Below are positions 24,491-39,997 of a stretch of DNA of 64,000 nt, in pieces (position 1 is the first letter of the stretch; every line of letters starts with the position of its first letter). Made by a program: the position numbers and the translations under genes. The notes beneath the pieces were generated by a model, which saw only the letters and a program-made list of their open reading frames with translations, was not told the DNA's origin and searched no databases. Location: assembly GCF_048550555.1 (NCBI RefSeq), contig NZ_JBLYYF010000009.1:19-64018 (forward strand), given 5' to 3'. This DNA comes from Qipengyuania sp. GTDB taxonomy: Bacteria; Pseudomonadota; Alphaproteobacteria; Sphingomonadales; Sphingomonadaceae.

Positions 24491-26155
24491 CTAGCATCCG
24501 AATTTCACGAACTCCAGTTCCGGAAACCCTGCGTCAGCCGATTGATCGAGCCTGTCGTAGTACGCGTTTGCTCCGCCGAAATAGATCAGGACGCGCGGCG
24601 CCTTGTCGTCGCGGTTCGCGCCCATCATCCAGGAATTGACCTCGTCGCCCCGGGCCATCAACGTCTGGTTGTGGATGTCCGCGGTATGCTTGGTCCATTC
24701 GCGCTCGGCCGCGATGCGCGGCTCGAAGACGTCGTATCCTTCGCGCTCCATCTTCTGCACGCAGCGGGCGATCCAGATGACGTTCTGCTCGATCGATGTC
24801 GGCAGGTTGGCAAACGGCGCTTGCGGTCCGGTGATGATGAACAGGTTGGGGAAGCCGGCAACGCAAGTCCCCATTATGGAATCGGACGACTTGCGCCATT
24901 TCTCGTTGAGTGTCTCACCCTCGCTGCCGCGGATCGGGAAGGCCTCGAGTGCGCCCGTATAAGCCTTGAAGCCGGTGGCCAGCACGATGATGTCGAATTC
25001 GTGGTCCTTGCGCGTGGTGCGCAGCCCGGCCTCGGTGATCTCGACCAGGGGCTCCTTGTCTTTGATGTCGACCAGGGTGACGTTGTCGCGATTGAGTGAT
25101 TTCAGGTAGCCTTGGTCGAGCGGCGGGCGTTTGGCGAACAGCGGGTATTCGTCGAGATCCGGTGCCACCAGGTCGGCGGTTTCGGGATCGTCGACCTGTT
25201 CCTTCATCTTGCGCGTGATGAATTCGGAAGCCAGGCGATTGGCCTCGGGATTGGTCAGCAAGTCATCGAAGGTTTCGAAGACCCAGCGGAAGCTGCCCGT
25301 CCAGTTCTCCTCGAACACGCGTTGCACCTCGTCGGGAGCCGTATCTGCGACGGTCCTGCCGGTCGGGCTGTCGAACGCCATTCCGAACGAATGACTGCGG
25401 CATTTCTGCACGATGGCGTCGTAATTCTCTTTGATCTCCTTTTCCCATTCCGAGGTCATCGGTCGCTGCATTGCGGGGAGAATGTAGTTGGGCGTGCGCT
25501 GGAACACCGTGACGCTGGCGGCGGTTTCGGCGAGGACCGGGACCATCTGCACGGTCGTCGATCCGGCGCCGATGACGGCCACCTTCTTGCCCGCATAGTC
25601 GAGGTCCCGCGGCCAGCGCGAGGAATGGAAGATCGGCCCCTCGAAGCGCTCGATGCCCTTGATCTTCGGGATCATCGGCTCCGAGATCATGCCCATCGCG
25701 CTGACGAGATATTTGCAGGTCAGGGTCTCGCCGTCATCCGTCGTGACACGCCAGCATCCCCGGTCGGCAAGGTATTCCGCCTCGACCACTTCGGTGTCGA
25801 ACTGGATGTGAGGCCACATATCGCATTCGTCGGCAACGAACTTCAGATAGGCCTGCGTTTCCTCCCACCCGGGATAGCGTTTCGTCCAGGACCACTTCTG
25901 CAACAGGTCCTTCGAGAAGGTCAGGCAATAGTAATAGCTTTCGCTATCGGTCGCCGCGCCCGGGTAGCAGTTCCAGTTCCAGGTTCCGCCGATATCCTTC
26001 GCGCGGTCGAGTATGCGGACCGACAGCCCCTCCTGACGCAGGTAATGGATCAAGGCCAGGCCCGCGAAACCGGCACCGATCCCGATCGCGTCGAAGTCCA
26101 CATCCGATCCGGTTTTGCGAGTCGCCATTGCCGTACCGAGTTCCTGCGTCGTCAT
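24491..26155 (-). CDS. type I Baeyer-Villiger monooxygenase (cyclohexanone monooxygenase family)
   Basis: Two Rossmann motifs (GAGFAG, GAGSTT), GGTWNWNCYPGAATD, fingerprint FEGPIFHSSRWP, ATGF. ATG 26155 with a GGAG/AGG RBS. Confidence 0.94.
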   Translation of the reverse strand: MTTQELGTAMATRKTGSDVDFDAIGIGAGFAGLALIHYLRQEGLSVRILDRAKDIGGTWNWNCYPGAATDSESYYYCLTFSKDLLQKWSWTKRYPGWEETQAYLKFVADECDMWPHIQFDTEVVEAEYLADRGCWRVTTDDGETLTCKYLVSAMGMISEPMIPKIKGIERFEGPIFHSSRWPRDLDYAGKKVAVIGAGSTTVQMVPVLAETAASVTVFQRTPNYILPAMQRPMTSEWEKEIKENYDAIVQKCRSHSFGMAFDSPTGRTVADTAPDEVQRVFEENWTGSFRWVFETFDDLLTNPEANRLASEFITRKMKEQVDDPETADLVAPDLDEYPLFAKRPPLDQGYLKSLNRDNVTLVDIKDKEPLVEITEAGLRTTRKDHEFDIIVLATGFKAYTGALEAFPIRGSEGETLNEKWRKSSDSIMGTCVAGFPNLFIITGPQAPFANLPTSIEQNVIWIARCVQKMEREGYDVFEPRIAAEREWTKHTADIHNQTLMARGDEVNSWMMGANRDDKAPRVLIYFGGANAYYDRLDQSADAGFPELEFVKFGC

Positions 26156-26198
26156 TTGCCATCCTCTCCACAAATCCAAATATCTCTTGCCGGGTCCG

Positions 26199-27380
26199 TC
26201 AACGTCCCGCCCAACGAGCACCTCCGGTTTCGAATTCTCCAACAGGATCGGGCAGCCCGATCTCGGCCAGCAGGTCCTCGCGGTCGGCGTCACGGCGCCA
26301 CATTCTGGGCGTGACGGCTGGCGTATTCTCGAACCGGGGTGCCGGCTTCGGTTGCACATACCCGTCGGCTTCGCAGAAGATGTCCCGGGCGAGGCAATGT
26401 TCGTGCGCCAAGGCGTCTTCCATCGTGAGGACTTCGGTGAAACAGCAGTCGACGCTCGCCAGTCGATCGATCCAATCTGCGCGCGGAGCGGATGCAAATG
26501 TCTTCGCCAGTCGCGCTTGCATGGTCGGCCACCTCGACCGGTCGTGCTGGTCGGCAAATAGCGGGTCCGCGTCGAGGCCCATCGCTTCGAGAAAACTCGC
26601 GTAGAACTTGGCTTCGATGGCTCCGATCGCGACGAACCGGCCATCGGCGCATGCATAGCACGAATAGAACGGGGCGCCGCCGTCGAGAAGGTTTTCGCCG
26701 CGCGCCCCGTTCCACATGCCGTTGTGCTTGAGCGACCACATTCCGGCCATGAGCGCGGCCGAGCCGTCGGCCATCGCGCAATCGATCACCCGGCCGCGGC
26801 CGTCGGCCCGAGCCGCGAGCAAGGCCGATACGAAACCGAACGCCAGCAGCATCCCGCCGCCGCCGTAGTCGCCGATCAGGTTGAGCGGAGGCGACGGCGG
26901 CTGCGTTTTCGGGCCCAGGGTTGCAAGGCAACCGCTCATCGAAATGTAGTTGAGATCGTGACCCGCCTTGGCCGCCAGCGGCCCGCTTTGCCCCCAACCG
27001 GTCATCCGACCGTAGACGAGAGAGGGCTTGCGCTCCATCATCGCCTCGGGCCCGAGGCCAAGTCGCTCGGCGACGCCGGGCCGAAACCCTTCGATGAGGC
27101 CGTCGGCAGTTTCGACCAGCCTTGCGACGATCTCGACCGAGTCCGGTTGTTTGAGGTCCAGGGTGATGGTCCGGCGCGACCGCAACAGGACATCGCGTTC
27201 CTGGTCCTGCGAGAGCGGGTCGCTTCCGCCCGGACGATCGATCCTGATGACCTCTGCCCCATGATCTGCGAGCATCATCCCGCAAAACGGCGCCGGGCCG
27301 ATTCCCGCCAACTCGATGACGCGTACGCCATCGAGCACCGGTCGCAGCGACGTGTCGTCGAGGTGTTCCGCGCGGCCCAT
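26199..27380 (-). CDS. CaiB/BaiF family enzyme, alpha-methylacyl-CoA racemase-like
   Basis: ELAGIGPAPFCGMMLADHGAEVIRIDRPG, EGFRPGVAERLGLGP, GHDLNY, LLDGGAPFY. Confidence 0.9.
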   Translation of the reverse strand: MGRAEHLDDTSLRPVLDGVRVIELAGIGPAPFCGMMLADHGAEVIRIDRPGGSDPLSQDQERDVLLRSRRTITLDLKQPDSVEIVARLVETADGLIEGFRPGVAERLGLGPEAMMERKPSLVYGRMTGWGQSGPLAAKAGHDLNYISMSGCLATLGPKTQPPSPPLNLIGDYGGGGMLLAFGFVSALLAARADGRGRVIDCAMADGSAALMAGMWSLKHNGMWNGARGENLLDGGAPFYSCYACADGRFVAIGAIEAKFYASFLEAMGLDADPLFADQHDRSRWPTMQARLAKTFASAPRADWIDRLASVDCCFTEVLTMEDALAHEHCLARDIFCEADGYVQPKPAPRFENTPAVTPRMWRRDADREDLLAEIGLPDPVGEFETGGARWAGR

Positions 27381-27542
27381 TCTATTGCTTCGCCTCAATC
27401 CGGTCAGGTCCGCAGGACGAAGGCCGCCGACAGTCCGCTTGCGCCGGTGCAAACACACAACTTCGCAGATGCCGCTGCGCTGCTGCAGGTGCCATGCCAT
27501 CTCTCCTACCACCACCAAACGAAAGCGGGGGCTCTCATCTTA

Positions 27543-27561
27543 TTTGTTAGCGTCTAGCAAA
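27543..27561. promoter_or_regulatory. candidate TetR operator upstream of the racemase-BVMO unit
   Basis: Near-perfect dyad TTTGTTAG-CGT-CTAGCAAA in an AT-rich spacer. Confidence 0.45.
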
Positions 27562-27627
27562 TGTAATATCAAGCGTGAATGCCCGTTGGCGAGGCGGGGT
27601 CAGCCAGGAAACATGAGTGCGCGCAGC

Positions 27628-28335
27628 TCAGTCGGCGATGCCGAAGGTTGCTTTCGTCGAGGTACGGAAGGATGTGAATTCCTTGGCGAGATCGACGCTC
27701 TCAGGCGCGACGAGCCATTGGTAGATCGTGCCGAAGATGAAGCTGCAAAATCCGAACGCATAGCTTTGCGCATCGACCGATTTGTCGATCTCCCCACTCG
27801 CCATGCCTTCCTCGACCCAGTGCGCGATGTCGCTACGATAGATCTGGTGATAGGCGGCAAGGTGCCTGCGCACGTCGTTGTGCGAACTGATCGATTCAAA
27901 CCACAATATATACATTGCCTTCATGTAACCGCTATGGCTCGACAGGAACCCTTCGACCGCGCTCAGCGCGGCGAGACAGGCCTGCGCACCGCCCTGTTCG
28001 CCCACCTTGTTGGCGAGTTCGCGCGTCCAGCTCGTGTTGAAATGCAAAACCAGCTGACCGAACAGCGCGTCCTTCGACCCGAAGCGGCTCGACGCCAGCC
28101 CCCGTGAATATCCCGCCCGCTCGCCGACGGATTTGAGGGTGGTCGCGTGCGTTCCCTGTTCGACGATCAGCTGCATCGCCGCATCGAACATGCGCGCATC
28201 GGAAAGCGCGGTGCGTTCCGCCTGCGTCCGGCGCCGGGAGCGCGGCTTCTTGGGTTTCTGTATCGGGTTCGCAACCTGCGATTTCGTCACCTCGCGAAGT
28301 GAAGCCTTTCCCTTTGTTGGCGATGATGCGCTCAT
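27628..28335 (-). CDS. TetR/AcrR family regulator
   Basis: RRTQAER...MFDAAMQLIVEQGTHATTLKSVGERAGYSRGLASSRFGSKDALF HTH. The start may be a later GTG. Confidence 0.9.
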   Translation of the reverse strand: MSASSPTKGKASLREVTKSQVANPIQKPKKPRSRRRTQAERTALSDARMFDAAMQLIVEQGTHATTLKSVGERAGYSRGLASSRFGSKDALFGQLVLHFNTSWTRELANKVGEQGGAQACLAALSAVEGFLSSHSGYMKAMYILWFESISSHNDVRRHLAAYHQIYRSDIAHWVEEGMASGEIDKSVDAQSYAFGFCSFIFGTIYQWLVAPESVDLAKEFTSFRTSTKATFGIAD

Positions 28336-29966
28336 TGGACTTCGTCGATCCTTTCAAACTCTGTGTCGCCGGCCGCAACTGCTTCACGCAGGGCCTGCTT
28401 GTCTATCTTGCCGACGCTGGTCAACGGCAGGGCATCGATATGCGCCCAGTATTCGGGCACCCAGAAATGCGCGATCCGGTCCCGCAACGAACCTCTCAGC
28501 CGGGCGAAATCGGGCCGTGCGCCATCGACGGTAGTCACGATCGCGAGGGGCCGTTCCTCCCAGCGCGGATCGGGCACACCAATCACAGCGGCGAGATCGA
28601 TGCCCGGCAGGCCCGATACATGGTTTTCCAGCTCCGCCGAAGGGATCCACTCGCCACCCGACTTGATGAGATCTTTCAGGCGGTCGGTCACCTGGACGTA
28701 GCCCCGCTCGTCGATCGTCCCGGCATCGCCGGTGTCGAGCCAGCCATCCACCGTCAGGACGTCGTCGCCCACGCCACGGTGATAACCACTTGCGATCCAG
28801 GCGCCCCTCAACTGGAGCCTGCCTACGTCGGCACCGTTCTCGGCGACCAACATGCCATCGTCGTCGACCAGACGGACCTTCACCCCGGGAACCGGACGAC
28901 CGCTTTTGGCGCGCAGCCTGCGCGCTTCGGCCTCCACCACATCGGCGGCAGGCTGAGACAGCACGCACAGGGGGCTCGTTTCGGTCATGCCCCATCCCTG
29001 GATCAAGGGCACGTGCCAAGAGCGTTCAACCTCGGCAATAAGTCTCTCGGACACGGCCGAACCGCCGGCGACGATTGTTCTGAAACTGGTCATGTCGACC
29101 GGATCCTCCGCGTCCGCGCGCAGCAGATCGTTAAGTATGGTCGGGACGGTGGCGGTAAAGGTCGGTGCCGTCACGGCGATCATTTTGCGGATCGCGACGG
29201 GCTGCAGGTGCGGCCCCGGAAGCACGAAATCCGACCCGGCCAACCAACCAGAAAAGGGCAAGCCCCAGGCGTTGGCGTGAAACATCGGCGGCAGCAACAG
29301 GATGGTGTCGCGGTCGCCAAGTCCAAAGGCGTTGGCCGCCATCGATGCCAGGCTGTGAAGGAAGATTGTCCTGTGCGAATACACAACACCTTTGGGATTC
29401 CCCGTCGTTCCCGAGGTGTAGCACACGGCCGCCGCAGCGGTTTCGTCAGGGATCGGGAAATTGACCATGGGGCCGTGGGCTGAGATGAGTTCTTCGTAGC
29501 TCACCCAGGGTTTTGTCAGGCCTTTGGGCGTCGCGGGATTTCCCGTGACGACCACCAGCTTCAGCGCAGACAGCGCATTGACCTGCGCGAGCACATCGCC
29601 GAGCAGGTCGCTATCCGCAATCAGTATCGCATCTTCTGCGTCCGCCATGATGAAGCCGATCTGGTCGGGATGGAGACGAAGGTTGAGCGTGTGCAGGACC
29701 GCACCCATCGCCGGGACTGCGAGATAGGCCTCGAAATGGGCGAAGTCGTTCCAGCTCAGCGTCGCGACCCGCGTATTGTTTGCTACCCCGACGGCGCGAA
29801 GCGCGGTCGCCAGGCGGCGCGCCCGTTCGGCCGTCTGCGCGTAGGTTTGCCACGTCATGTCTTCGCCGTCGAAACAGCCTATCCGTTTCGTCGCGTGGAT
29901 GCGTTCACCGTGCTCGAAAATGGCGGCCGTTCCCAGCGGCTCGTGCATCATGGTCGCCTCCATCAC
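28332..29966 (-). CDS. acyl-CoA synthetase (AlkK/LvaE/DmdB-type)
   Basis: CYTSGTTGNPKGVVYSHR, PMFHANAWGLP, QGWGMTETSP, DRLKDLIKSGGEWI. Confidence 0.92.
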   Translation of the reverse strand: MMEATMMHEPLGTAAIFEHGERIHATKRIGCFDGEDMTWQTYAQTAERARRLATALRAVGVANNTRVATLSWNDFAHFEAYLAVPAMGAVLHTLNLRLHPDQIGFIMADAEDAILIADSDLLGDVLAQVNALSALKLVVVTGNPATPKGLTKPWVSYEELISAHGPMVNFPIPDETAAAAVCYTSGTTGNPKGVVYSHRTIFLHSLASMAANAFGLGDRDTILLLPPMFHANAWGLPFSGWLAGSDFVLPGPHLQPVAIRKMIAVTAPTFTATVPTILNDLLRADAEDPVDMTSFRTIVAGGSAVSERLIAEVERSWHVPLIQGWGMTETSPLCVLSQPAADVVEAEARRLRAKSGRPVPGVKVRLVDDDGMLVAENGADVGRLQLRGAWIASGYHRGVGDDVLTVDGWLDTGDAGTIDERGYVQVTDRLKDLIKSGGEWIPSAELENHVSGLPGIDLAAVIGVPDPRWEERPLAIVTTVDGARPDFARLRGSLRDRIAHFWVPEYWAHIDALPLTSVGKIDKQALREAVAAGDTEFERIDEVQ

Positions 29967-30994
29967 GCGAACCCTTCTTCGCGCGCGAACCGCGCGGCTG
30001 CGTCGAGCAGGGAGGGGACATCGTGTTCGAGCGCACGCTCATATTTTCCGTCGACCAAGCCAAGGCGATGGAGCACGTACGCCCCTTCGACGATCGCGGC
30101 GAGGCGCCAGAGCGCGAAGGCCTGGTAGAAGCGAAGGCGGTCGATCGACAGCCCGGTCCGTCGGCTCCATCGCAAGGCGAGACCGTCGCCCCCGATCACC
30201 CCGGCATGGTTGGACATCCTCTGGACGAAGGCAAAGCCCAACGGCTGGCTCTCGTCGCGATTCCACATCGCGGTGACCAGGCCGACATCGACCAGTGGAT
30301 CGGCCAGCGTTGCCATTTCCCAATCGAGGATCGCATTCACGCGCGGTTGCTCCGAAGCCATGAGCACATTGTCGAGATGGTAGTCGCAATGGACGATTCG
30401 CACCGTTTCAGGTGCCGGCGCGTTTTCCGAAAGCCATCCGCCGATGGCTTCGATCAAGGGTAGGTCGCGCGCCTTGCGTTCACGCCGCTCCTCGCGCCAG
30501 CGTTCGACCTGCCGGAGGACGAAGTCGCGCCCCTTATCGATGCTGCCGAGCCCAGCAGACGGCGGATTGATCGCATGGACGCTGGCCAGCGCATCGATAA
30601 GCGCCGCACCGATCGCGTCGCGGCAGGCCGCGGTGTCCGGATAGGTCTTGGGCAGGCGATCGGTTATCGCTTCGCCGTTTACGAAGCGGGTGATGGAGAA
30701 AGGCACGCCGATGAGGTCGAGATCATCGCAAAACAGGACTGGCTCAGCGACCGGGGCCGAGCCTGCGATGGCGGATATGAAGCGGAATTCGCGAGCAATG
30801 CCTGCTCCGGCGAGCTTGGAAATGGTTGCTTGAGGCGGGTGGCGCAAGATCATTGGCCCATTCGCCGTCTCGATCAGGCTGGTGACGTTGGCATTGCCTC
30901 CTGCCACGGGCCGCACCAACCGAGCATCTCCAAGTCCGGCCTCTGTGTCCAGCCAGCGCACGAGGCGCTCGGGCAAATCGACTATAGCTTGCAC
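29963..30994 (-). CDS. APH-family phosphotransferase (LvaA/ACAD10-11 kinase-like)
   Basis: GGNANVT glycine loop, IVHCDYHLDNVL, ILDWEMATLADPLVDVG. Start GTG 30994 is tentative. Confidence 0.88.
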   Translation of the reverse strand: MQAIVDLPERLVRWLDTEAGLGDARLVRPVAGGNANVTSLIETANGPMILRHPPQATISKLAGAGIAREFRFISAIAGSAPVAEPVLFCDDLDLIGVPFSITRFVNGEAITDRLPKTYPDTAACRDAIGAALIDALASVHAINPPSAGLGSIDKGRDFVLRQVERWREERRERKARDLPLIEAIGGWLSENAPAPETVRIVHCDYHLDNVLMASEQPRVNAILDWEMATLADPLVDVGLVTAMWNRDESQPLGFAFVQRMSNHAGVIGGDGLALRWSRRTGLSIDRLRFYQAFALWRLAAIVEGAYVLHRLGLVDGKYERALEHDVPSLLDAAARFAREEGFA

Positions 30995-31716
30995 ATCAGA
31001 CCGCCATCGTTCGCGATTATGGAGCCTGTCATGTAAGTCGAGCCCGCGACCCACCAAACGACTTCCGCCAGTTCTTCGGGCGTGCCTTCGCGTCGAAGGG
31101 GGATTCCGTCGATCAGTTTTGTCTTCGCGCGTTCCGGAATGTTGTCGGTCATATCGGTTGAGATCATCCCCGGAATGACGAGATTTACCCGGATCGCCTG
31201 CCGAGCGAGTTCGATCGCCAGCACCTGGGTCAGTCCGGCCAACCCGGCTTTCGACGCCCCGTATGCGGCATCACCGGCAAACCCCCGCAGGCCAACCACG
31301 GCCCCGATGTTCACGATCGATCCGCCCTTGCCCATGTGCGGCAGAGCGGCGCGCACGAAGTTGAACGGACCGGAAAGGTTCGTATCGAGCACGCGCTGCC
31401 AATCCTCCTGCGGCAGGGCCGACACCAGCCCTCCGCGATGCAGGCCCGCATTGTTGACAAGGACATCGATCCCGCCCCAGCGCTCGGCTACCTGTTTGCA
31501 GACTGCATTGGCCTCTTTCGGATCCGAGACGTCCGCCGCCAAGCCGATGGTGTCGCCATCGATCGAATTGGCGCTCGCCTCGATGTCGTTGCCACGTGAC
31601 ACGAGCGCGACCCGATCGCCGTTGCTGGCAGCCACCTGGGCAATCGCGAGACCCAACCCTCGCGATGCCCCCGTGACGATCCATCTTCGCTGTTCGCTTT
31701 GCGGGCCCGACGCCAT
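30982..31716 (-). CDS. short-chain dehydrogenase/reductase (FabG-like)
   Basis: TGASRGLG, NNAG, YGASK. Confidence 0.92.
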   Translation of the reverse strand: MASGPQSEQRRWIVTGASRGLGLAIAQVAASNGDRVALVSRGNDIEASANSIDGDTIGLAADVSDPKEANAVCKQVAERWGGIDVLVNNAGLHRGGLVSALPQEDWQRVLDTNLSGPFNFVRAALPHMGKGGSIVNIGAVVGLRGFAGDAAYGASKAGLAGLTQVLAIELARQAIRVNLVIPGMISTDMTDNIPERAKTKLIDGIPLRREGTPEELAEVVWWVAGSTYMTGSIIANDGGLMCKL

Positions 31717-31728
31717 TGCGCGATCGTC

Positions 31729-33990
31729 TTAGAACGTCTGGGTCAGAGCGACGCCCCAACTCCGCCGAGGTCGCGGGGCGGCATAGCTCCAGACACCCTG
31801 CACGTCGTAGCCGATGGTCCAGCCGTCCTCGTTCGCGAGGTTCTTGCCGAACAGGCTGAGCGTGGTTTGATTGAACCGGACGTTGACGGAGGCATCGATC
31901 AGGAATTGTCCGTCATTGCGCAGGTTCGGGTTGTTGAGGAAGGTTATTTCGTGCCCGCCAATATAGTGGATATCGCCGGTCACCCAGGCCGTCGCATTCT
32001 GCGCTACTGCCGCCTCATAGGTTCCGCCGATGCTCCAGGTCCATTTCGGGGCGCGACGAATCTTGAGGAATGTTGCGTCCACCGGCGTCCCGGTGCTGAA
32101 GATATCGCCCATGAAGTCCTTGTACTTGGCGTCGAGGTAGCCGAGGTTCCCGCGTATCGTGAGCCCGTCGACCGGGATGGCGGTCAGGTCGAGTTCGACG
32201 CCTTTGAATTCAGCCGAGGAAGCGTTGATCGTACGGTTCTCGCGTCCGGTCGAGGTGCCCGGGGCCGGCACGTCGAGGTCCTGCTGCATGTCGTCGTATT
32301 TCATCAGGAAGACCGCGCCGTTGAGGCGGACCAGCCCGTTCGCGAATTCGGCCTTGAAGCCGGCTTCGTAGTTGTCGAGCGTTTCCGGGTCGTAGGGAAT
32401 GGTCGCCGCACCGATCGTTGCCGGTCGCCCATTGAAGCCGCCGCCGCGATAGCCACGCGACCATAGGGCATAGACCATCGCGTCGTCGGAAAGTTCGTAG
32501 CGCAGTGACACGCGCGGTGTGAATTTCGACCAGCTTTCCCGAACGGGCGCAGCCATCGAAATCGCGCCGGGAAGGGTCGCGACCGGGTCCTCCTCGACCG
32601 TGGTTCCATAAAGCAAGATCGGCAGGTCGTTGACGATGCTCGACTTCTTGTCCTTGGTGTAGCGCGCACCGAGAGTCAGGGTCAGCCGATCGACAAGCTC
32701 GTAGTCGGCCTCACCGTAGAGCGCCCACGACTTGTTGGTCTGTGCAACGTCCTGCGCGCTCGTCAGCAATGGCACGCCGGCGAAGCCGATGTAGTTCTTC
32801 AGGTTGATAGTGTAGCGCGAGTCCCACAGATACGCGCCCAGCACGAAGGTCAAGGGACCGTTACCGCCCTTGGTCAGCCGCAACTCGTTCGTCGTCTGGC
32901 GCCAGCGGGCGGGCCGGTCGGTGTGATAGAGTGTGAACGGGGCCGCATCGAAATCCTGATAGATTTCTTCGTCGGTCTTGAGCCAGCCGAAGATGTAATC
33001 GACCTGCATGTCCGCCCCGATGTCGTAGGTCGCCTTGCCGATCGCCATGTCGAGCTTGAATGTCGCGTTCTTCTGCAGGCGGCCGTCCGAAACGCTGACA
33101 TAGCGGTCGCCCGAAGTTGGCACGCCGGGCGAAGGGGAGCATTGGTCGTAGGCGACGCAGAAGAGGTCCGTGTCGCGGTTGATTGCCAGTAGCTGCGGCG
33201 GATCCTGTCTGGTTTTCTGGTGGTCGTAGCTGAGCAGGATGTCGAGGTTCTCGGTGGGCTCGATCAGCAGAGCGCCCGCGACGGCGTAGAATTCCGAGCG
33301 CTGTCCCGGCTGGTCGTAGAAGCGGTTGTAGATATATCCGTCGGACGCTTCGTAGGCTCCACTCACCTTCAGCGCGATGTTCTCGGATAAGCCGGTGCTG
33401 GCGACGCCTTCTATTTTCCAGGTGTCGAACCTGCCATAGGTCGCGCGCACTTTGCCCGTGAGGTCGTATGTCGGGCGAGAGCGCGCTAGATTGATGACGC
33501 CGCCGGTAGCATTGCGACCGAAGAGCGTCCCCTGCGGGCCCCGCAGGACCTCGACCCGGTCGATGTCGATCGCCTTCAGAAGGCTGCCCGAGCTCTGGCC
33601 GATATAGATGTCGTCGAATACCACGCCGACGGCCGGGTCGACCGATTTCTCGACATCGGCGACGCCGATTCCGCGAATGTAGACCGCTGCCACACCGCCT
33701 GGCCCCTGCTGCGTATCGTCGATCACGATGTTGGGCGAAGAGTCAGCAAAATCCCTGACATCCGAATCGAACCGCTTGTCGAGCTCGCCGGCGGAGAGCG
33801 CACTGATCGATGCGGGCACGTCCTGCATACTTTCTTCGCGCTTGCGCGCGGTCACCACGATGACGTCGAGCCCGCCCGAGGTGGCGGCCTGTTCGCTATC
33901 GGTTTCTTCCTGTGCATGAGCGACCGTGGCGGGGCCGAATGTGGCCGCCGCGATCGCAAGCAGGCTCACGTACGTCGCTTGATTGATCAT
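31729..33990 (-). CDS. TonB-dependent receptor
   Basis: Signal peptide, IVVTARKREESMQDVP, VEVLRGPQGTLFGRNATGG, C-terminal Phe. ATG 33990 with a GGGAGAG RBS. Confidence 0.95.
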   Translation of the reverse strand: MINQATYVSLLAIAAATFGPATVAHAQEETDSEQAATSGGLDVIVVTARKREESMQDVPASISALSAGELDKRFDSDVRDFADSSPNIVIDDTQQGPGGVAAVYIRGIGVADVEKSVDPAVGVVFDDIYIGQSSGSLLKAIDIDRVEVLRGPQGTLFGRNATGGVINLARSRPTYDLTGKVRATYGRFDTWKIEGVASTGLSENIALKVSGAYEASDGYIYNRFYDQPGQRSEFYAVAGALLIEPTENLDILLSYDHQKTRQDPPQLLAINRDTDLFCVAYDQCSPSPGVPTSGDRYVSVSDGRLQKNATFKLDMAIGKATYDIGADMQVDYIFGWLKTDEEIYQDFDAAPFTLYHTDRPARWRQTTNELRLTKGGNGPLTFVLGAYLWDSRYTINLKNYIGFAGVPLLTSAQDVAQTNKSWALYGEADYELVDRLTLTLGARYTKDKKSSIVNDLPILLYGTTVEEDPVATLPGAISMAAPVRESWSKFTPRVSLRYELSDDAMVYALWSRGYRGGGFNGRPATIGAATIPYDPETLDNYEAGFKAEFANGLVRLNGAVFLMKYDDMQQDLDVPAPGTSTGRENRTINASSAEFKGVELDLTAIPVDGLTIRGNLGYLDAKYKDFMGDIFSTGTPVDATFLKIRRAPKWTWSIGGTYEAAVAQNATAWVTGDIHYIGGHEITFLNNPNLRNDGQFLIDASVNVRFNQTTLSLFGKNLANEDGWTIGYDVQGVWSYAAPRPRRSWGVALTQTF

Positions 33991-34084
33991 GGTTCTCTCT
34001 CCCAGCGCTGGGCGCAATTTCTGATCGCGGATGCTATTGCCATTCTCGCGATTTGCGCTGCTACAAGAGCATGACTCACATGCT

Positions 34085-34208
34085 TGCTCTCGACAAGCAA
34101 ATATTTTCGACAAGCGCATATGCCTCTGTTGGAAAATTCTAAGATTTTGACTCCAAACGACTTTATTCTGAATTCCGGTGCAAACACTATTGTTGCTTGT
34201 TCCAAGCT
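34085..34208. promoter_or_regulatory. divergent promoter region with candidate operator dyads
   Basis: TGCTTG-TTC-CAAGCT at 34194-34208 and TGCTCT-CGA-CAAGCA at 34085-34099 in an AT-rich spacer. Confidence 0.45.
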
Positions 34209-34261
34209 ACTAAGTGTGCAAAAAGATTTCAGAGGATAATTCGACGATCGGGAGAGAGTGA

Positions 34262-35014
34262 ATGGCAGGCCGACTTTCGGGAAAGTCGGCGCTTATCTCG
34301 GGTGGCGCGAGCGGCCTGGGCGAAGCGCAGGCGACCTTGTTTGCGCGGGAGGGCGCGACCGTCCTCGTCGGCGACTTGCAGGGCGACAAGGGCAACGCCG
34401 TCGTCGAGACGATCCGCGCCGAGGGGGGTGAGGCAGCCTTCATCCGCCTCGATGTTTCCGATCCGGAAAGCTGGGCAACCGCTGTATCGGATGCGGTCTC
34501 GCGCTTCGGCAAGCTGACAACGCTGGTCAACAATGCCGGCATCTTTCATCCGGGCGGCATTCTCGAGGAAACAAAGGAAGGCTGGGATCGCATGATCGCG
34601 ATCAACCAGACCGGCGTGTTTCTGGGTATGAAGGCGGCGGGCGACGCCCTGCTGCAATCGGGCAATGCGGCGATCGTCAACATCAGCTCACTCTATGGCC
34701 TGATGGGCAGCCCGAATGCCATTTCCTATCACGCATCTAAGGCAGCCGTCCGGTTGATGGGCAAGGCCGGCGCGCTCGAATTCGCCAAGCGCGGCATTCG
34801 CGTGAACACGATTTTTCCGGGTCAGATATTGACCCCGATCCTCGGCGACATCACGCCCGAACAGGATGCCGCCATCAAGGCGTCGATCCCGATGGGGACC
34901 GTAGGCGACCCGATGGATATCGCCTATGCCAGCCTCTACCTTGCGTCGGACGAGGCGAAATACGTCTCGGGTGCCGAGCTGTGGGTCGATGGGGCGTGGT
35001 ACGCCGGGCAATGA
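34262..35014 (+). CDS. short-chain dehydrogenase, LinX-like
   Basis: 250 aa; MAGRLSGKSALISGGASGLG, LTTLVNNAGIFHPGG, YHASK, IPMGTVGDPMDIA, LASDEAKY. Collinear with Sphingobium LinX as recalled. Confidence 0.9.
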   Translation: MAGRLSGKSALISGGASGLGEAQATLFAREGATVLVGDLQGDKGNAVVETIRAEGGEAAFIRLDVSDPESWATAVSDAVSRFGKLTTLVNNAGIFHPGGILEETKEGWDRMIAINQTGVFLGMKAAGDALLQSGNAAIVNISSLYGLMGSPNAISYHASKAAVRLMGKAGALEFAKRGIRVNTIFPGQILTPILGDITPEQDAAIKASIPMGTVGDPMDIAYASLYLASDEAKYVSGAELWVDGAWYAGQ

Positions 35015-35054
35015 ACACGGTGTCGCCATCGCAGCAGATCGTACGGAGCCGCTA

Positions 35055-36350
35055 ATGGGCTGGGACTTTTCGACCGACCCCGAGTTCGAGGAACAGCTCG
35101 AGTGGATGCGCGGTTTCGTCGCCGAGGAAGTCGAACCGCTGGATCTCGTGTTCAGGGATCCCGGTGCGCATGTCGATCCGAAATCTCCCGCCGCCCGCGC
35201 CATGGCACCGCTCAAGGACGAGGTGAAACGGCGCGGGTTGTGGGCCTGCCATCTCGGCCCCGATCTCGGCGGCAAGGGCTTCGGCCAGCTCAAACTCGGC
35301 CTGATGAACGAAATCCTCGGTCGCAGCCGGTTCGCCCCGACCGTGTTCGGGACGCAGGCCCCCGACACCGGCAATGCGGAAATTCTCGCCCGGTTCGGGA
35401 CCCTCGAACAGAAGGCCAAGTATCTCCAGCCACTGCTCGACGGCGAGATCGTGTCGTGCTTTTCGATGACAGAGCCGCAGGCGGGCGCCGACCCGGGCGA
35501 GTTCTCCTGCACGGCGAAGCTCGATGGCGACCAGTGGGTAATCGATGGCGAAAAATGGTTCGCCAGCCACGCCTGTCTCGCCGAATTCCTGATCGTGATG
35601 GCAATCACCGATTCGGCCGTGCCCGTACATCACGGATCCACGATGCTCATCGTTCCGCACGATACACCCGGGCTGGAGATCGTGCGCAACACGGCGGTCG
35701 GGCCGAAGGACGAGATCGGCAGCGGGGTCCACGGCTATCTGCGCTTCACGAATTGCCGGGTGCCGGAGGCCAGCCGCCTAGGTCCGGTGGGGGAAGGCTT
35801 CAAGGTCGCCCAGTCGCGGCTCGGCGGCGGGCGCATCCACCACGCGATGCGCACCGTCGGCATGCTCAACAAGGCGATGGAATACATGACCGAGCGCGTT
35901 GTCAGCCGTACGACCAAGGGCGAGCGGCTGGCCGACAAACAGATGGTTCAGGAGAAGATCGCGGACAGCTACACGCAGATCCTCCAGTTCCGGCTTCACG
36001 TGCTTTACGCAGCCTGGCTGCTCGACCAGGACCGGGCCTATACGCGCAGGGTCCGACGCGAAATCGGCGCAATCAAGGCGGCCATGCCGGGTGTGCTCAA
36101 GGACGTGGTCTATCGGGCGCTGCACCTCCACGGTTCGCTGGGTATGTCGAACGAAACGCCGCTGATGGACATGTGGCAGTACGTTCCCGAAATGGGGATC
36201 GTCGACGGCCCGACCGAAGTGCACAAGGTAGCCGTGGCGAAGGACATCCTACGCGGAGTCGCGCCCGCCGACGGCCCCTTTCCCAGCTATCACGTGCCGA
36301 CCCGCCTGGCGGCGGCACGGCGAAAATTCGCGGATTTCATCGAACACTAG
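35055..36350 (+). CDS. acyl-CoA dehydrogenase family protein (ACAD10/11, LvaC/FadE2-type)
   Basis: GTQAPDTGNAEIL, SCFSMTEP, AQSRLGGGRIHHAMR, DGPTEVHK. Start ATG 35055. Confidence 0.92.
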   Translation: MGWDFSTDPEFEEQLEWMRGFVAEEVEPLDLVFRDPGAHVDPKSPAARAMAPLKDEVKRRGLWACHLGPDLGGKGFGQLKLGLMNEILGRSRFAPTVFGTQAPDTGNAEILARFGTLEQKAKYLQPLLDGEIVSCFSMTEPQAGADPGEFSCTAKLDGDQWVIDGEKWFASHACLAEFLIVMAITDSAVPVHHGSTMLIVPHDTPGLEIVRNTAVGPKDEIGSGVHGYLRFTNCRVPEASRLGPVGEGFKVAQSRLGGGRIHHAMRTVGMLNKAMEYMTERVVSRTTKGERLADKQMVQEKIADSYTQILQFRLHVLYAAWLLDQDRAYTRRVRREIGAIKAAMPGVLKDVVYRALHLHGSLGMSNETPLMDMWQYVPEMGIVDGPTEVHKVAVAKDILRGVAPADGPFPSYHVPTRLAAARRKFADFIEH

Positions 36351-36373
36351 GCTGGAGTGCGTGGGAGCGGAAC

Positions 36374-36841
36374 ATGTCTGACGGTACGGAGTTGGAACAT
36401 CGCCTCGACCGGATCGAGAGCAGGTTCGCGATGCACGAGCTCGTGAGCGACTACTGCCACGGTTTCGACAAGCGCGACTGGGACCGGTTCGCCGCGATCT
36501 GGTGGCCCGACGCGATCTGGGACATCGGCCCGCCTTTCGGCACGTTTCAGGGGATCGAGGAGATCACGGATGTCACCAAGGACATCCTGTGGGACGCCTG
36601 GCTCGCCTCGAGCCATTTCACCACCAATCTGGTCATCACCTTCGATGGCAGGGATGCGGCAAACGGCCTGTGCGACGTCGACTGCATCGGCACTACCTCC
36701 GACAAACAGGCGCAGACCGTCAGTGCGAGCTATTTCGACCGGTTCGAAAGGCGCGGAGGGATCTGGAAAATCGCCACTCGCAAGGTGAAGATGTACCACT
36801 TCAATCCATTGCCTGGCGTCACGCTGACGCCGCCTGCATAG
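36374..36841 (+). CDS. NTF2/SnoaL-fold protein, LinA (gamma-HCH dehydrochlorinase)-like
   Basis: 155 aa from ATG 36374 (GGGAG RBS): LDRIESR, FDKR, IWWPDAIW, ILW...SHFTTNL, NG..DV, FERRGGIWK...R, FNPLPG. Confidence 0.88.
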   Translation: MSDGTELEHRLDRIESRFAMHELVSDYCHGFDKRDWDRFAAIWWPDAIWDIGPPFGTFQGIEEITDVTKDILWDAWLASSHFTTNLVITFDGRDAANGLCDVDCIGTTSDKQAQTVSASYFDRFERRGGIWKIATRKVKMYHFNPLPGVTLTPPA

Positions 36842-36849
36842 GAGCAACT

Positions 36850-37653
36850 ATGGCCTATTTCGAAACCGAAGGCGGCGGCCACGTCTATTACGAGCATTTT
36901 CGCGGCGAAAAATTTCCCGTCGTCCTGGTCCATGGCTGGGGCATGTCGGGCGAATACTGGGCATCCGCAATCGAGGCGCTGCAGGCGGAAGGCCATGGCG
37001 CGATCATCGTGGACCATCGTGGATGTGGACGATCGGATCGCGACTTCGCCGATATGTCGATCGGCGCGATCGCCGGCGACGTGGCCGCGATCGTCCGTCA
37101 GTGCGGCCCGGAGCGTGTCGTGCTCAACGGCTGGTCGCTCGGCGCGGCCGTGGTCGTCGCGGCCGCCGAGATCCTCGGCGACCGGGTGGCGGGGCTGATC
37201 CTGACCTGCGGTGCCTCGCCGCGCTACGTTCAGGGAGAGGGCTTCCCCCATGGCGGAACCGCCGAGGATGTGCTCGGCATTTGCAGCGCGATTACCGCCG
37301 ACCGACCCGGCTTCTTCCGCACGCTCGCCGAAGGCGCGGCGGGCGAAGGCGCGAGCGAGGCGCTGATCGGCTGGGTCGAGCGCGGCTTCCTCGCCTCCGG
37401 TCCACGCGCAAGCGAAACGCTTGCCGGACTCGCCACGCTCGACCAGCGCGTGTTGCTCTCGTCCTTTCCCTTCCCGGTGCTCTCGATCGGGGGGGCGAAT
37501 GATGCCATCGCCGATCCGGCCATCGCGGGATTCGCGGCCGACTGTGCGCAGCACGGGACGCTGGTGACACTGAACACGGGCCATTCGCCCCAGCTCGAGA
37601 CCCCCACAGCCTACAACAACGTCCTGATAGAATTTATGAGGAAGCTCGCATGA
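36850..37653 (+). CDS. alpha/beta hydrolase (serine nucleophile; lactonase/esterase-like)
   Basis: VHGWG, DHRGCGRSD, GWSLG elbow, GGANDAI, GHSP. AGGAG RBS overlaps the previous stop. Confidence 0.9.
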   Translation: MAYFETEGGGHVYYEHFRGEKFPVVLVHGWGMSGEYWASAIEALQAEGHGAIIVDHRGCGRSDRDFADMSIGAIAGDVAAIVRQCGPERVVLNGWSLGAAVVVAAAEILGDRVAGLILTCGASPRYVQGEGFPHGGTAEDVLGICSAITADRPGFFRTLAEGAAGEGASEALIGWVERGFLASGPRASETLAGLATLDQRVLLSSFPFPVLSIGGANDAIADPAIAGFAADCAQHGTLVTLNTGHSPQLETPTAYNNVLIEFMRKLA

Positions 37654-38792
37654 TCTCCTCCGTGGTCGACGACCTCGCCGCTTTACTCGCACCCTTGCGG
37701 GCACCCTTCGAATGCAAGTCCTTGAAGGCGCCGAACCGCTTCTGCATGGCGCCGATGTCGCGCTATTTCGCGCCCGGCGGCATCCTGACCGAGGACGGAG
37801 CCGAATATTATCGCCTTCGCGCAGCGGCGGGTATCGGCACGATCATCACCGAGGGCACCGGCGTTGCAATCGATCACAGCGTTGCCGCGGATTCGGTGCC
37901 GCTGTTCGCCGGCGACGAAGCGCTGGCTGCGTGGAAGAGAGCGGTGGACGCGGTTCATGCCGAAGGCGGAACGTTCGTACCGCAACTGTGGCATGTGGGT
38001 GGCTGCTCCGATTTCAATTTCCCCGATTCACCCCACGCCCCGCTGGTCAGCCCGTCGGGTTTCGCCGGACCCGACGTGCCCGGTGGCCGTGCCATGAGCG
38101 ACGAGGACATTGCCGATACCGTGGCGGCATTCGCCGAATCCGCGCGCGCGGCGAAGGACATGGGTTGCGACGCGATCGAACTCCACGGCGCGCACGGCTA
38201 CATCTTCGACCAGTTCTTCTGGGACAAGACCAATTTGCGTAAGGATCGCTATGGCGGACCGGACATTGCCGACCGGGCGACTTTCGCGGCCGAAGTCGTG
38301 GCCGCATGTCGCGAGGCGGTGGGCGATGATTTCGCGATCATCCTGCGCATTTCGCAATGGAAGACCTACGACTACGAGGTGAAACTCGCGAACGATCCCG
38401 ACGAGATGCAACGCTGGCTCGACCCGCTCGTTCGTGCCGGAGTGGATATCTTCCACGCATCGCAACGCCGGTTCTGGGAGCCCGAATTCGTCGGCGACAC
38501 GAAGAACTTCGGCGGTTGGATCAAGGAGGTAACCGGCAAGCCGGTGATCACCGTCGGATCCATCGGCATGAACCGTGATCTGATGGAGGATTTCGTCGAG
38601 GGCATTTCCTCGCCCATGCTCAACCGGCTGGTCGATCTGGTGGACATGTTCGACCGAGGCGAGTTCGATCTCGTCGCACTGGGCCGCGTCCTTCTCGCCG
38701 ACCCAGACTGGCTGGAAAAGATCGAGCAGCGGCGGATCGACGAACTCAAGCCCTACGACCGCGCGACTGCGCTCGAGCGCTACGAACACTGA
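37650..38792 (+). CDS. Old Yellow Enzyme family NADH:flavin oxidoreductase
   Basis: NRFCMAPMSR, QLWHVG, ELHGAHGYIFDQF, RKDRYGG, LGRVLLADP. Confidence 0.93.
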   Translation: MISSVVDDLAALLAPLRAPFECKSLKAPNRFCMAPMSRYFAPGGILTEDGAEYYRLRAAAGIGTIITEGTGVAIDHSVAADSVPLFAGDEALAAWKRAVDAVHAEGGTFVPQLWHVGGCSDFNFPDSPHAPLVSPSGFAGPDVPGGRAMSDEDIADTVAAFAESARAAKDMGCDAIELHGAHGYIFDQFFWDKTNLRKDRYGGPDIADRATFAAEVVAACREAVGDDFAIILRISQWKTYDYEVKLANDPDEMQRWLDPLVRAGVDIFHASQRRFWEPEFVGDTKNFGGWIKEVTGKPVITVGSIGMNRDLMEDFVEGISSPMLNRLVDLVDMFDRGEFDLVALGRVLLADPDWLEKIEQRRIDELKPYDRATALERYEH

Positions 38793-39312: not shown

Positions 39313-39876
39313 TCAGGGCATCTGCCCGGCGAGCTTGCGGAGCGTCTGGGCCGCGATGTCCAGCGTCTGGAGCTTGGTCATGAAGCGCGCGACGACGGCC
39401 GGATCGTCGGCCAGCTCGTCGGACAGCGCCTCCATGGCCGCAGCCGTATGGATGATGTCCTCGCGGCTCAATTCGGTCGAGAACAGCGGGGCCGCGACCT
39501 TGGCCACGGGGGCTGCGACCAGTTCGGCCCTGGCCATCTTGATCGCCACGTCGACTTCTGACTGGGTGCGCCGGCCCGACGGTAGCCACAGACCGACGTC
39601 GGCGGGGTGGTGAAAGCGGATACCCGCCTTGCCGTCACCCTTCCAGACGACCGTCGCATCGAGCGAGATCTCGCCGCGATGGAGAAGGCAGGCCGTGCCC
39701 GGAGTCGGGAGATGTGCAGCCTCGACCAGTGCGCCGCCGCTCGACATGTTGCGGACCTTGGCCGTTTCGCGCGAGGTGTTGGTCACCAGTGCGGCCATGA
39801 CGAACATGTTGGTTCGCGGCTCCGAACGGGCGCAATCGGGAAAGGCTTCCGGTGTATCGTACGCTGTTGTGAACAT
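39313..39876 (-). CDS. PilZ-domain protein
   Basis: RSEPR (RxxxR) and NMSSGG ((D/N)xSxxG) motifs followed by a helical C-terminal extension. Start may be TTG 39888. Confidence 0.85.
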   Translation of the reverse strand: MFTTAYDTPEAFPDCARSEPRTNMFVMAALVTNTSRETAKVRNMSSGGALVEAAHLPTPGTACLLHRGEISLDATVVWKGDGKAGIRFHHPADVGLWLPSGRRTQSEVDVAIKMARAELVAAPVAKVAAPLFSTELSREDIIHTAAAMEALSDELADDPAVVARFMTKLQTLDIAAQTLRKLAGQMP

Positions 39877-39997
39877 GTCGAATTCCAATAGCCTGCATGC
39901 CCGATCTTCGGCAAGATTGCCTCATCGCCCGGCTAGGTAAATGTACGAGGTAGGCCCGCCCGTTGCGGCGCGCGCCGACCGGGGCCCGAACGAGTGA

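Follow-up and report, generated by a model that had tools for sequence, protein, structure and literature searches.

A 64,000-nucleotide stretch of Qipengyuania sp. (assembly GCF_048550555.1, contig NZ_JBLYYF010000009.1), referred to here as the window, contains twelve tightly packed genes at positions 24491-38792. They raise the question of what a Baeyer-Villiger monooxygenase (BVMO), an ene-reductase of the old yellow enzyme (OYE) family, an APH-family kinase and an atypical acyl-CoA dehydrogenase (ACAD) could be doing together in a single locus. Open reading frame (ORF) calls group the genes into three transcription units with hardly any sequence between genes. The first, on the reverse strand, encodes a TonB-dependent receptor, a short-chain dehydrogenase/reductase (SDR), the kinase, an acyl-CoA ligase, and a TetR-family regulator. 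The second, also on the reverse strand, consists of a racemase-like gene followed by the BVMO gene. The third is on the forward strand, divergent from the receptor, and encodes another SDR, the ACAD, a LinA-like protein, an alpha/beta hydrolase, and the OYE. Coding regions overlap by 13 nt at the SDR/kinase junction and by 4 nt at the kinase/ligase, ligase/TetR and hydrolase/OYE junctions. Families were assigned using Pfam and NCBIfam, and start codons were fixed from orthologue lengths.

A preliminary description of this DNA had reported overlapping ligase, kinase, and SDR genes in one unit, and a divergent unit with a DGPxEVH-containing ACAD, a serine hydrolase, and an OYE. All of the genes it named were recovered in place by the ORF, Pfam and NCBIfam assignments, including the overlaps and, in the divergent unit, the DGPTEVH motif, a hydrolase with a GWSLG elbow, and a PF00724 protein. 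However, three genes were missing from it: the TetR regulator, the LinA-like gene, and the SDR at the head of the ACAD operon. The arrangement of the twelve genes is far beyond chance, and they very probably form one regulated functional unit. Our preferred reading, to which we give a probability of roughly 60%, is that this island encodes a TetR-controlled catabolic route for an imported alicyclic or ketone-bearing, probably methyl-branched compound. An upper part would carry the compound through ring opening, and a lower part would activate the resulting acid and remove its 4-hydroxyl group. The lower part is much better supported than the upper part, which we infer.

The kinase and ACAD pair

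The APH-family kinase (29963-30994, reverse strand; 343 aa; PF01636) is a predicted 4-hydroxyacyl-CoA kinase. Its best solved relatives are PDB entries 9O56 and 3DXP and the kinase domain of ACAD11 (E 5e-28), against which it scores 101-145 bits (101 for ACAD11), versus at most 36 bits against all others. The HCDYHLDN and DWE segments align with HGDFKLDN and DWE of ACAD11, a match to the catalytic HxDxxxxN pattern that includes ACAD11 D220 and N225 and to the segment with the Mg-binding Asp. In the kinase tree, the cluster kinases are sister to the type-2 kinases of Pseudomonas. A well-supported group (99) brings together cluster, type-2, lva-type, and Bacillales 9O56-type kinases, with the ACAD11-type kinases apart. 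PDB 9O56 had been considered as LvaA, but a protein search assigned it to Caldalkalibacillus thermarum, and a literature search for this entry gave nothing relevant. The family of this APH-type protein is very widespread in Bacillales, with more than 7,000 relatives at E <= 1e-60.

The partner of the kinase is an ACAD-fold protein of the ACAD10/11-LvaC type (35055-36350, forward strand; 431 aa; three ACAD domains), a predicted 4-phosphoacyl-CoA phosphate eliminase. Among solved structures it is closest to M. abscessus 4HR3 (246 bits), followed by mouse and human ACAD11 (221-227 bits, with 227 for mouse), and ordinary ACADs score at most 145 bits. In ACAD11, mutagenesis and modelling show that R626, H634, and R637 (the HxMR motif) bind the 4-phosphate; R631 is conserved, and D753 is catalytic (PMC12440821). 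The phosphate-binding helix of the cluster ACAD, SRLGGGRIHHAMR, lies opposite GRLGPGRIHHCMR of ACAD11 and keeps the equivalents of R626, R631, H634, and R637. It reads HAMR where ACAD11 has HCMR, and the same Cys-to-Ala change is found in M. abscessus 4HR3. The segment VDGPTEVH aligns with LADGPDEVH of ACAD11 and supplies the D753 equivalent, which is Glu in ordinary ACADs; DGPTEVH is invariant in the six cluster copies aligned. The APDxGN loop highlighted for human ACAD11 (P463; PMC11342911) is also present, as GTQAPDTGNAE. These three signature motifs occur in all three kinase-linked clades described below and are absent from nine ordinary ACADs of the same genome that were aligned.

Trees were built from canonical kinase-ACAD pairs of many bacteria, second-copy Pseudomonas pairs, and two Pseudomonas loci (L207 and L208), with the nine ordinary ACADs of the source genome and one Pseudomonas paralogue for comparison. 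L207 and L208 represent the lva type, recognised through synteny with the published P. citronellolis LA18T locus, and the B. pseudomallei orthologues lie outside the sampling. The kinase-linked ACADs are monophyletic relative to ordinary ACADs (94) and fall into three clades. Clade A is the lva type, clade B comprises the Pseudomonas type-2 proteins and the cluster ACAD, and clade C contains ACAD10/11 and the canonical bacterial pairs. The cluster ACAD is placed in clade B with an SH-aLRT value of 100; B is sister to C (99), and A branches outside both. When the second-copy Pseudomonas pairs were left out, the cluster ACAD formed an isolated long branch, and it joined clade B once they were included. 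The ACAD accompanies the kinase in every complete cluster copy, and since the kinase and ACAD trees are congruent, the pair has co-diverged.

Elimination of phosphate from 4-phosphoacyl-CoA has been shown for P. putida LvaC and for ACAD10/11 (PMC12440821, PMC6692424), and the B. pseudomallei kinase-ACAD orthologues have also been shown to be active. Because clade B is bracketed by clades A and C and its signature is intact, it most likely performs the same chemistry. The preliminary description had proposed a module of the lva/ACAD10-11 type. The signature residues and the trees do place the pair within the LvaA/LvaC/ACAD10-11 superfamily, but in a third clade rather than in the lva-type or ACAD10/11 clades. 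We class the pair as a new subfamily that most likely works like the Lva and ACAD10/11 enzymes, and not as orthologues of LvaA and LvaC. With good confidence, we predict from these sequence features that the kinase and ACAD are a 4-hydroxyacyl-CoA phospho-elimination pair.

A canonical ACAD10/11-type pair is found elsewhere in the genome (C26:4701-7437 and C21:23647-24570; L145 and L146) and is conserved across the genus. Its kinase is 28% identical to the cluster kinase, and its ACAD is apparently split over two contig ends. Given this second pair, the cluster pair is an extra, specialised copy. A 'Pseudomonas LvaC' peptide from the supplement of PMC11342911, FNCSAPDTGNMET, was also tried as a marker for lva operons. 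The contig scan retrieved 120 canonical ACAD10/11-like genes, about two thirds of which have an adjacent kinase, and no lva operon. The peptide belongs to the canonical ACAD10/11-type clade rather than to the lva-type clade defined by synteny. The UniProt accessions given in that paper (LvaA, Q88G01; 'LvaC', Q88K54; LvaE, Q88EH6) are far apart for adjacent P. putida genes, and because they are not consecutive, the 'LvaC' identity figures of PMC11342911 were left unused.

The genes around the kinase are similarly consistent with an Lva-like module. The ligase (28332-29966, reverse strand; 544 aa; AMP-binding domains) scores above the cut-off for NCBIfam PRK06187. Among solved structures, the T. 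thermophilus fatty acyl-CoA synthetase 1ULT matches it best (E 3e-116), and this structure served as the template for LvaE2 (PMC6692424). The cluster ligase shares 38-41% identity with the one in the LvaE2 position of L207/L208; most other ligases close to kinase-ACAD pairs reach 24-28%. The SDR whose gene overlaps that of the kinase (30982-31716, reverse strand; 244 aa; adh_short, YGASK) is translationally coupled to it and sits at an LvaD-like position. The resemblance to an LvaE/LvaA/LvaD triad noted in the preliminary description is borne out by this ligase type and SDR position. The CoA_transf_3 protein (26199-27380, reverse strand; PF02515), which has the CoA-transferase family III fold, scores 379 bits against the M. 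tuberculosis racemase MCR versus at most 106 bits against true CoA-transferases, in agreement with its earlier description as racemase-like. An alpha-methylacyl-CoA racemase-like protein points to 2-methyl-branched acyl-CoA intermediates.

No LvaB-like gene had been seen at the locus. DUF6285, which we take to be the LvaB family, has no match in the whole genome, and the gene spacing of the cluster leaves no room for one. LvaB is dispensable in ACAD10/11 as well. In the lva-type Pseudomonas locus L207, a 127-aa DUF6285 ORF (L207:7286-7669, reverse strand) is translationally coupled to the LvaA-like kinase gene, and the next gene encodes a histidine phosphatase, in line with the published P. 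citronellolis locus. Based on this coupling, LvaB probably belongs to DUF6285.

A proposed catabolic route

In the proposed upper part, the compound would be imported by the TonB-dependent receptor (31729-33990, reverse strand; 753 aa; Plug and TonB_dep_Rec barrel), whose gene heads the kinase operon. The SDR that heads the ACAD operon (34262-35014, forward strand; 250 aa; adh_short, YHASK) is a probable ring or secondary-alcohol dehydrogenase and would oxidise such an alcohol to the ketone. Its nearest named NCBIfam models are alcohol and hydroxycyclohexanecarboxylate dehydrogenases, both below their cut-offs. The LinA-like protein would next form an enone by expelling a beta leaving group, most simply water, and the C=C bond would be reduced by the OYE (37650-38792, forward strand; 380 aa; PF00724), a classical ene-reductase with OPR1/3, PETN reductase, and NEM reductase as relatives.

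Oxygen would then be inserted beside the ketone by the type I BVMO (24491-26155, reverse strand; 554 aa), the second gene of its unit. This protein contains the FxGxxxHxxxW[P/D] motif as FEGPIFHSSRWP and a Rossmann GAGFAG, and it matches FMO-like and Pyr_redox_3 families in Pfam. Its best solved relative is the cyclohexanone monooxygenase of T. municipale (E 7e-140), and PAMO, STMO, and OTEMO are each matched below 1e-100. The alpha/beta-fold serine hydrolase (36850-37653, forward strand; 267 aa; Abhydrolase_1/6), a predicted lactone or ester hydrolase, would open the product to a hydroxy acid. It has a GWSLG nucleophile elbow, and its relatives are arylesterases, cofactor-free haloperoxidases, gamma-lactamase, BioH, and PcaD.

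The LinA-like protein (36374-36841, forward strand; 155 aa; PF13577) is a member of the NTF2/SnoaL_4 fold group, and LinA is its closest solved relative, with a full-length match (E 4e-31, 39% identity). It keeps the Asp25-His73 dyad and the C-terminal arm of LinA, and throughout its family position 20, which is Lys or Gln in LinA, is a conserved Tyr. The typical reaction of NTF2 enzymes carrying a His-Asp dyad is loss of a leaving group beta to an electron sink, often with a Tyr as oxyanion hole (PMC9942872). By analogy, an elimination or dehydration is the probable contribution of the LinA-like protein, which is tied more tightly to the kinase and ACAD than the BVMO is. Four genomes (L147-L150) contain a sister LinA-like subfamily (49-53% identical) alongside a ligase, an SDR, and a related TonB receptor (44-46%), with no kinase nearby. 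By Pfam, one of these loci (L147:2454-15768) encodes a PQQ dehydrogenase, an enoyl-CoA hydratase, two ACADs, a TetR regulator, an Amidohydro_2 protein, a KstD-like FAD_binding_2 flavoprotein, and a PNPOx-like protein, again with no kinase. Its content is compatible with a role on alicyclic ketones or CoA esters.

In the lower part, the ligase would form the CoA thioester of the hydroxy acid, and the racemase, where present, would epimerise 2-methyl centres. Beta-oxidation would stall once an oxygen function is reached at C4. The kinase-coupled SDR would set this function as a 4-hydroxyl, in the manner of LvaD, and the APH kinase would phosphorylate it with ATP. The atypical ACAD would then eliminate the phosphate through a transient flavin-dependent oxidation, giving a 2-enoyl-CoA that could return to beta-oxidation. 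A substituted ring would yield a secondary alcohol or methyl ketone, and chain shortening would convert this to a 4-hydroxy- or 4-oxo-acyl-CoA, which is the predicted substrate class of the module.

The link from the BVMO, hydrolase, and OYE to the kinase-ACAD module rests on conserved synteny, operon fusion, and a shared operator-like sequence, all described below. We see about an even chance that the BVMO and hydrolase feed the ligase, kinase, and ACAD. As for the substrate itself, a cyclic, terpenoid-like ketone or alcohol is a tentative suggestion that we hold with low confidence.

Conservation, regulation and alternative readings

The same 11-12 genes occur in the same order in nine genomes or metagenome-assembled genomes (MAGs) of Sphingomonadales, at kinase identities down to 48%, and the order is kept in every long contig inspected. 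Kinase relatives at 48-82% identity are found in Sphingopyxis, Tsuneonella, Altererythrobacter, Croceicoccus, Allopontixanthobacter, Sphingomonas, and MAGs. Cluster copies include those of Sphingopyxis fribergensis (L012), Altererythrobacter sp. GH1-8 (L013), an ENA MAG (L011), Sphingomonas sp. SUN019 (L021), and a JGI MAG (L022), as well as L211, L212, and L151. The ACAD (74-90% identity) and BVMO (71-85%) are the most conserved proteins across the clusters, and the kinase (46-75%) and hydrolase (41-82%) are the least conserved. Identity is 55-78% for the kinase-coupled SDR and 55-87% for the TonB receptor, and the TetR gene is kept in all copies. In two copies (L013:1141-2163 and L212:3766-4818), the ACAD operon has another APH-family kinase gene directly downstream of the OYE gene; its product is 31% identical to the cluster kinase.

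In the three most distant copies (L021, L022, and L151; kinase 48-51% identical), the BVMO gene is at the end of the ACAD operon and the racemase gene is absent. This move into the ACAD operon makes the BVMO a member of the unit, as the preliminary description had assumed in counting it as part of the locus. By the same comparison, the racemase is accessory. It is present in six of the nine full clusters and in two further loci, L143 and a reduced variant, L152.

The cluster is also infrequent. Among 301 genomes of Sphingomonadales, five have a kinase orthologue, and in all five a LinA-like gene lies within about 6 kb of it. It was found in none of 24 genomes of the same genus, nor in the same-genus genomes sampled within the order-wide search. 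The island is thus rare, patchy, and horizontally scattered in the order. Its carriers include many marine and freshwater sphingomonads and MAGs, and since cultured strains are among them, the proposed route is experimentally tractable.

Several points weigh against the catabolic route as we propose it. The reduced variant L152 keeps the TetR regulator, ligase, kinase, SDR, ACAD, LinA-like protein, hydrolase, and racemase but has no receptor, first SDR, OYE, or BVMO on its 39-kb contig, which indicates that the core can do without the BVMO front end. The pair lies in neither experimentally characterised clade, and its identity to mouse ACAD11 is just 38% for the ACAD and 27% for the kinase. 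Opening of a six-membered ring by a BVMO gives a 6-hydroxy rather than a 4-hydroxy acid, so an extra round of beta-oxidation has to be assumed, for which the cluster has no genes. Finally, the order of steps and the roles of both SDRs and of the LinA-like protein are assigned from family chemistry alone.

These points lead to the alternative that we take most seriously, although we consider it unlikely. The hydrolase, ligase, SDR, kinase, ACAD, and LinA-like protein may constitute the core of a pathway for lactones or 4-oxo and 4-hydroxy acids, with gamma-lactones, butenolides, and 4-oxo acids as substrates. The BVMO, OYE, first SDR, and receptor would then be an add-on that widens the substrate range in some lineages. 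L152 holds exactly such a core plus the racemase, although the G057 assembly is fragmented (460 contigs) and the missing genes may sit on other contigs. A hydrolysed gamma-lactone would give the 4-hydroxy acid directly, with no additional beta-oxidation, and the relatives of the hydrolase include the enol-lactonase PcaD, gamma-lactamase, and lactone-active arylesterases. Butenolides would also be reducible by an OYE. Conversely, nine out of ten cluster copies have the BVMO, few proteins of the cluster are as well conserved, and in three copies it shares an operon with the ACAD.

Regulation bears on whether the three units belong together at all. The TetR-family regulator (27628-28335, reverse strand; PF00440 and a TetR C-terminal domain) is encoded at the end of the receptor-SDR-kinase-ligase operon. 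With up to one mismatch allowed, the window contains three sites of a palindromic motif, TTGCTWG-N5-ARCAA, all of them in promoter regions of the cluster. The first, TTGCTAGACGCTAACAA (27544-27560), is upstream of the racemase-BVMO unit and has no mismatches on one strand and one on the other. The second, TTGCTTGTCGAGAGCAA (34084-34100), is on the receptor side of the divergent promoter region and has no mismatches. The third, TAGCTTGGAACAAGCAA (34193-34209), is on the ACAD-operon side of the same region and has one mismatch on both strands. In the 2.94-Mb genome there are two perfect matches, and both are cluster sites (27544-27560 and 34084-34100).

Sites matching these two are found at the same places in L011, L012, L013, L211, and L212, and an equivalent of the 34193-34209 site is found in the divergent region of L011, L012, L211, L021, and L022. 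Overall, the motif is present in the same promoter regions of most orthologous clusters and almost nowhere else in those 20-kb loci at the same stringency. Its presence in all three promoter regions suggests that the cluster TetR controls all three units through this candidate operator. The sole other two-strand palindromic match in the genome (C45:27173-27189, equal to L144:5174-5190) has one mismatch and is flanked by divergent genes, one encoding an NAD(P)-binding protein and the other a FAD-dependent oxidoreductase; this may be a further member of the regulon or a chance match.

A common operator would not be expected if the genes were merely neighbours, that is, two or three independent catabolic operons that travel together on the island. 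Such an arrangement would fit the three separate transcription units and the loss of the racemase from three full copies, but we think it improbable. Gene order and content are kept down to 48% kinase identity, and where the BVMO gene has moved, it has moved into the ACAD operon rather than drifted away. The shared motif has perfect matches nowhere else in the genome. In addition, the kinase and its obligate ACAD partner are encoded in different units, and thus at least those two units must cooperate.

If the units do cooperate, the partner of the kinase could in principle be the LinA-like protein instead of the ACAD. The kinase would then phosphorylate a ring or side-chain alcohol other than a 4-hydroxyacyl-CoA, the LinA-like enzyme would expel the phosphate much as LinA does chloride, and the ACAD would be an ordinary dehydrogenase. 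Pairs of an APH-like kinase and a separate phosphate lyase do exist (PMC8449060), and LinA itself eliminates a good leaving group with no keto sink (PMC9942872). The LinA-like gene stays within about 6 kb of the kinase in all five genomes of the order that have the kinase, and it is retained in L152. Nevertheless, this alternative is very doubtful. An ordinary ACAD would have no use for the full phosphate-binding and Asp signature seen here, and the kinase and ACAD co-diverge. Nine Pseudomonas type-2 loci contain the kinase and ACAD with no LinA-like match in windows of 15-16 kb, and no kinase lies near the sister LinA-like genes of four genomes. Against the ACAD11 kinase, the cluster kinase scores 101 bits, versus 36 bits against 9fsg, which we take to be a steroid-kinase-like entry. 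The family-wide Tyr at LinA position 20 also resembles the oxyanion-hole Tyr of NTF2 dehydratases.

The same idea can be extended to the origin of LinA. The cluster might be the native home of the LinA lineage, in which the enzyme would expel phosphate from the kinase product, amounting to ATP-driven dehydration on an NTF2 scaffold. We regard this as a long shot. If true, it would explain how a dehydrochlorinase for hexachlorocyclohexane (HCH), a synthetic pesticide, could arise within decades from a leaving-group eliminase.

An organochlorine locus of the lin type for HCH, with LinA-like and LinX-like proteins dechlorinating xenobiotics, or antibiotic resistance through inactivation of an aminoglycoside or macrolide by the APH kinase, is suggested by LinA as closest solved relative (E 4e-31) and by the Pfam APH match with weak similarity to hygromycin and macrolide kinases, but is highly improbable: identity to LinA is 39% with Tyr for Lys/Gln20, the LinB haloalkane dehalogenase, LinE ring-cleavage dioxygenase, and LinD glutathione transferase are absent from the twelve genes, many sphingomonads and MAGs of marine and freshwater origin carry the cluster, antibiotic kinases score at most 29 bits versus 101-145 for ACAD-linked ones, and all NCBIfam resistance models fall far below their cut-offs.

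Relation to known systems and genomic setting

The enzyme logic that we propose for the lower part of the route is that of the lva operons, in which the CoA ligase LvaE/LvaE2, the C4-acting SDR LvaD, the APH kinase LvaA, and the phosphate-eliminating atypical ACAD LvaC act together (PMC6692424). For P. citronellolis LA18T, the published locus is supported by RNA-seq (PMC6692424). The layout of L207/L208 equals the LA18T locus gene for gene: a PrpR-type sigma-54 regulator, the ligase, and an SSF symporter on one strand, and the APH kinase, DUF6285, histidine phosphatase, ACAD, and SDR on the other. The cluster shares with the lva operons (P. putida KT2440 lvaRABCDEFG and P. citronellolis LA18T) this logic, the ACAD active-site signature, and a ligase of the LvaE2/1ULT type. 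In contrast, its ACAD belongs to clade B and not A, identity to proteins of the lva-type locus is about 31-33%, and neither the kinase nor the ACAD is orthologous to its lva-type counterpart. The cluster has no DUF6285/LvaB-like gene or histidine phosphatase. Its regulator is of the TetR family where the lva operons have the sigma-54 PrpR-type LvaR, and a TonB receptor stands in place of the ActP/DUF485 transporters. The kinase and ACAD are in divergent operons, and the BVMO, OYE, hydrolase, LinA-like protein, and racemase are additional.

ACAD10, ACAD11, and the canonical bacterial pairs (B. pseudomallei; PDB 8V3U, 2WBI, 4HR3, and 3DXP) share the predicted combination of a kinase with FAD-dependent phosphate elimination, the conserved residues, and a sister position in the ACAD tree. 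Unlike ACAD10/11, the cluster proteins are separate rather than fused, with HAMR for HCMR and GTQAPDTGNAE for NCxAPDTGNME. The closest relatives found are the Pseudomonas type-2 operons, which encode clade B ACADs 53-57% identical to the cluster protein, sister kinases, flanking SDRs, and a CoA-activating enzyme. They differ in that no BVMO, OYE, LinA-like protein, alpha/beta hydrolase, or TonB receptor was found in their 15-16 kb windows, and a transferase performs the CoA activation in one subtype. These operons have two forms. The first (L187:1929-8106, and L188, L195, and L201) has the order tandem CoA-transferase III (739 aa), SDR, ACAD, kinase, SDR. In the second (L191, L192, and L205), the genes run SDR, kinase, ACAD, SDRs; a ligase gene comes next in L191 and L192, and no ligase was detected in L205.

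The upper part resembles routes for cycloalkanones and monoterpene ketones, such as Acinetobacter chn, Comamonas cpn, and carveol/dihydrocarvone degradation in Rhodococcus erythropolis DCL14. These combine an alcohol dehydrogenase, in some cases an ene-reductase, a type I BVMO, and a lactone hydrolase, followed by beta-oxidation. The cluster likewise has a probable alcohol dehydrogenase, an ene-reductase, a CHMO-like type I BVMO, and a hydrolase. Classical cycloalkanone clusters oxidise the omega-hydroxy acid to a dicarboxylate. By Pfam and NCBIfam, no omega-hydroxyacid or aldehyde dehydrogenase and no Fe/Zn alcohol dehydrogenase is among the twelve genes; instead, the cluster has a ligase, a kinase, and a phosphate-eliminating ACAD, in addition to the LinA-like enzyme and TonB receptor. 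In the route we propose, the kinase-ACAD module stands in for the hydroxyacid and aldehyde dehydrogenases of those pathways. This fits a secondary alcohol, which is not oxidisable to a carboxylate.

With LinA (PDB 3A76, 3S5C, and 5KVB), the cluster homologue shares the full-length match, the dyad, and the C-terminal arm. It differs in that its gene belongs to a conserved operon for CoA-dependent catabolism and not to a lin island with IS6100 alongside, and its expected leaving group is a hydroxyl, possibly a phosphate, rather than chloride. The cluster thus gives the closest natural LinA homologues a defined physiological context, which makes the ancestral function of the HCH dehydrochlorinase testable. 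The 25-hydroxysteroid kinase and 25-phosphosteroid lyase of Sterolibacterium denitrificans also use ATP to convert a hydroxyl into a phosphate leaving group ahead of elimination (PMC8449060). That system acts on a free steroid alcohol with a lyase unrelated to ACADs, whereas the cluster kinase is nearer to ACAD-linked kinases and is accompanied by a signature-complete ACAD.

Literature searches for the gene combination gave nothing relevant, and no paper describing the cluster was found. To our knowledge, the solution of a kinase plus an atypical ACAD has been shown only for levulinate in Pseudomonas, a Burkholderia pair, and mammalian ACAD10/11. Clade B as a whole appears uncharacterised, the Pseudomonas type-2 operons included. 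The chemistry itself is known. What is new is the subfamily, its regulatory and transport context, and its joining to a Baeyer-Villiger/OYE/LinA-like front end. The cluster places a clade B pair within a full regulated island from uptake to beta-oxidation, and it suggests a natural role for such pairs in disposing of the secondary hydroxy or oxo group left by ring cleavage of substituted cyclic ketones. As far as we know, published monoterpene and cycloalkanone pathways leave the fate of this group open. The set of BVMO, OYE, kinase, and ACAD may also serve the biocatalytic deoxygenation of hydroxy acids.

The setting of the cluster is compatible with horizontal acquisition. G+C content is 60-64% across about 22-40 kb, versus 65-70% in the flanks, and the dip includes a second TonB receptor gene (21398-23914). 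This receptor was considered as a cluster member and set aside, as it is 27% identical to the receptors beside the cluster in other genomes. Among the small ORFs checked at the cluster edges, none matched a transposase or integrase. The sole match was a PilZ-domain ORF (39313-39888), which lies between the island and a flagellin gene.

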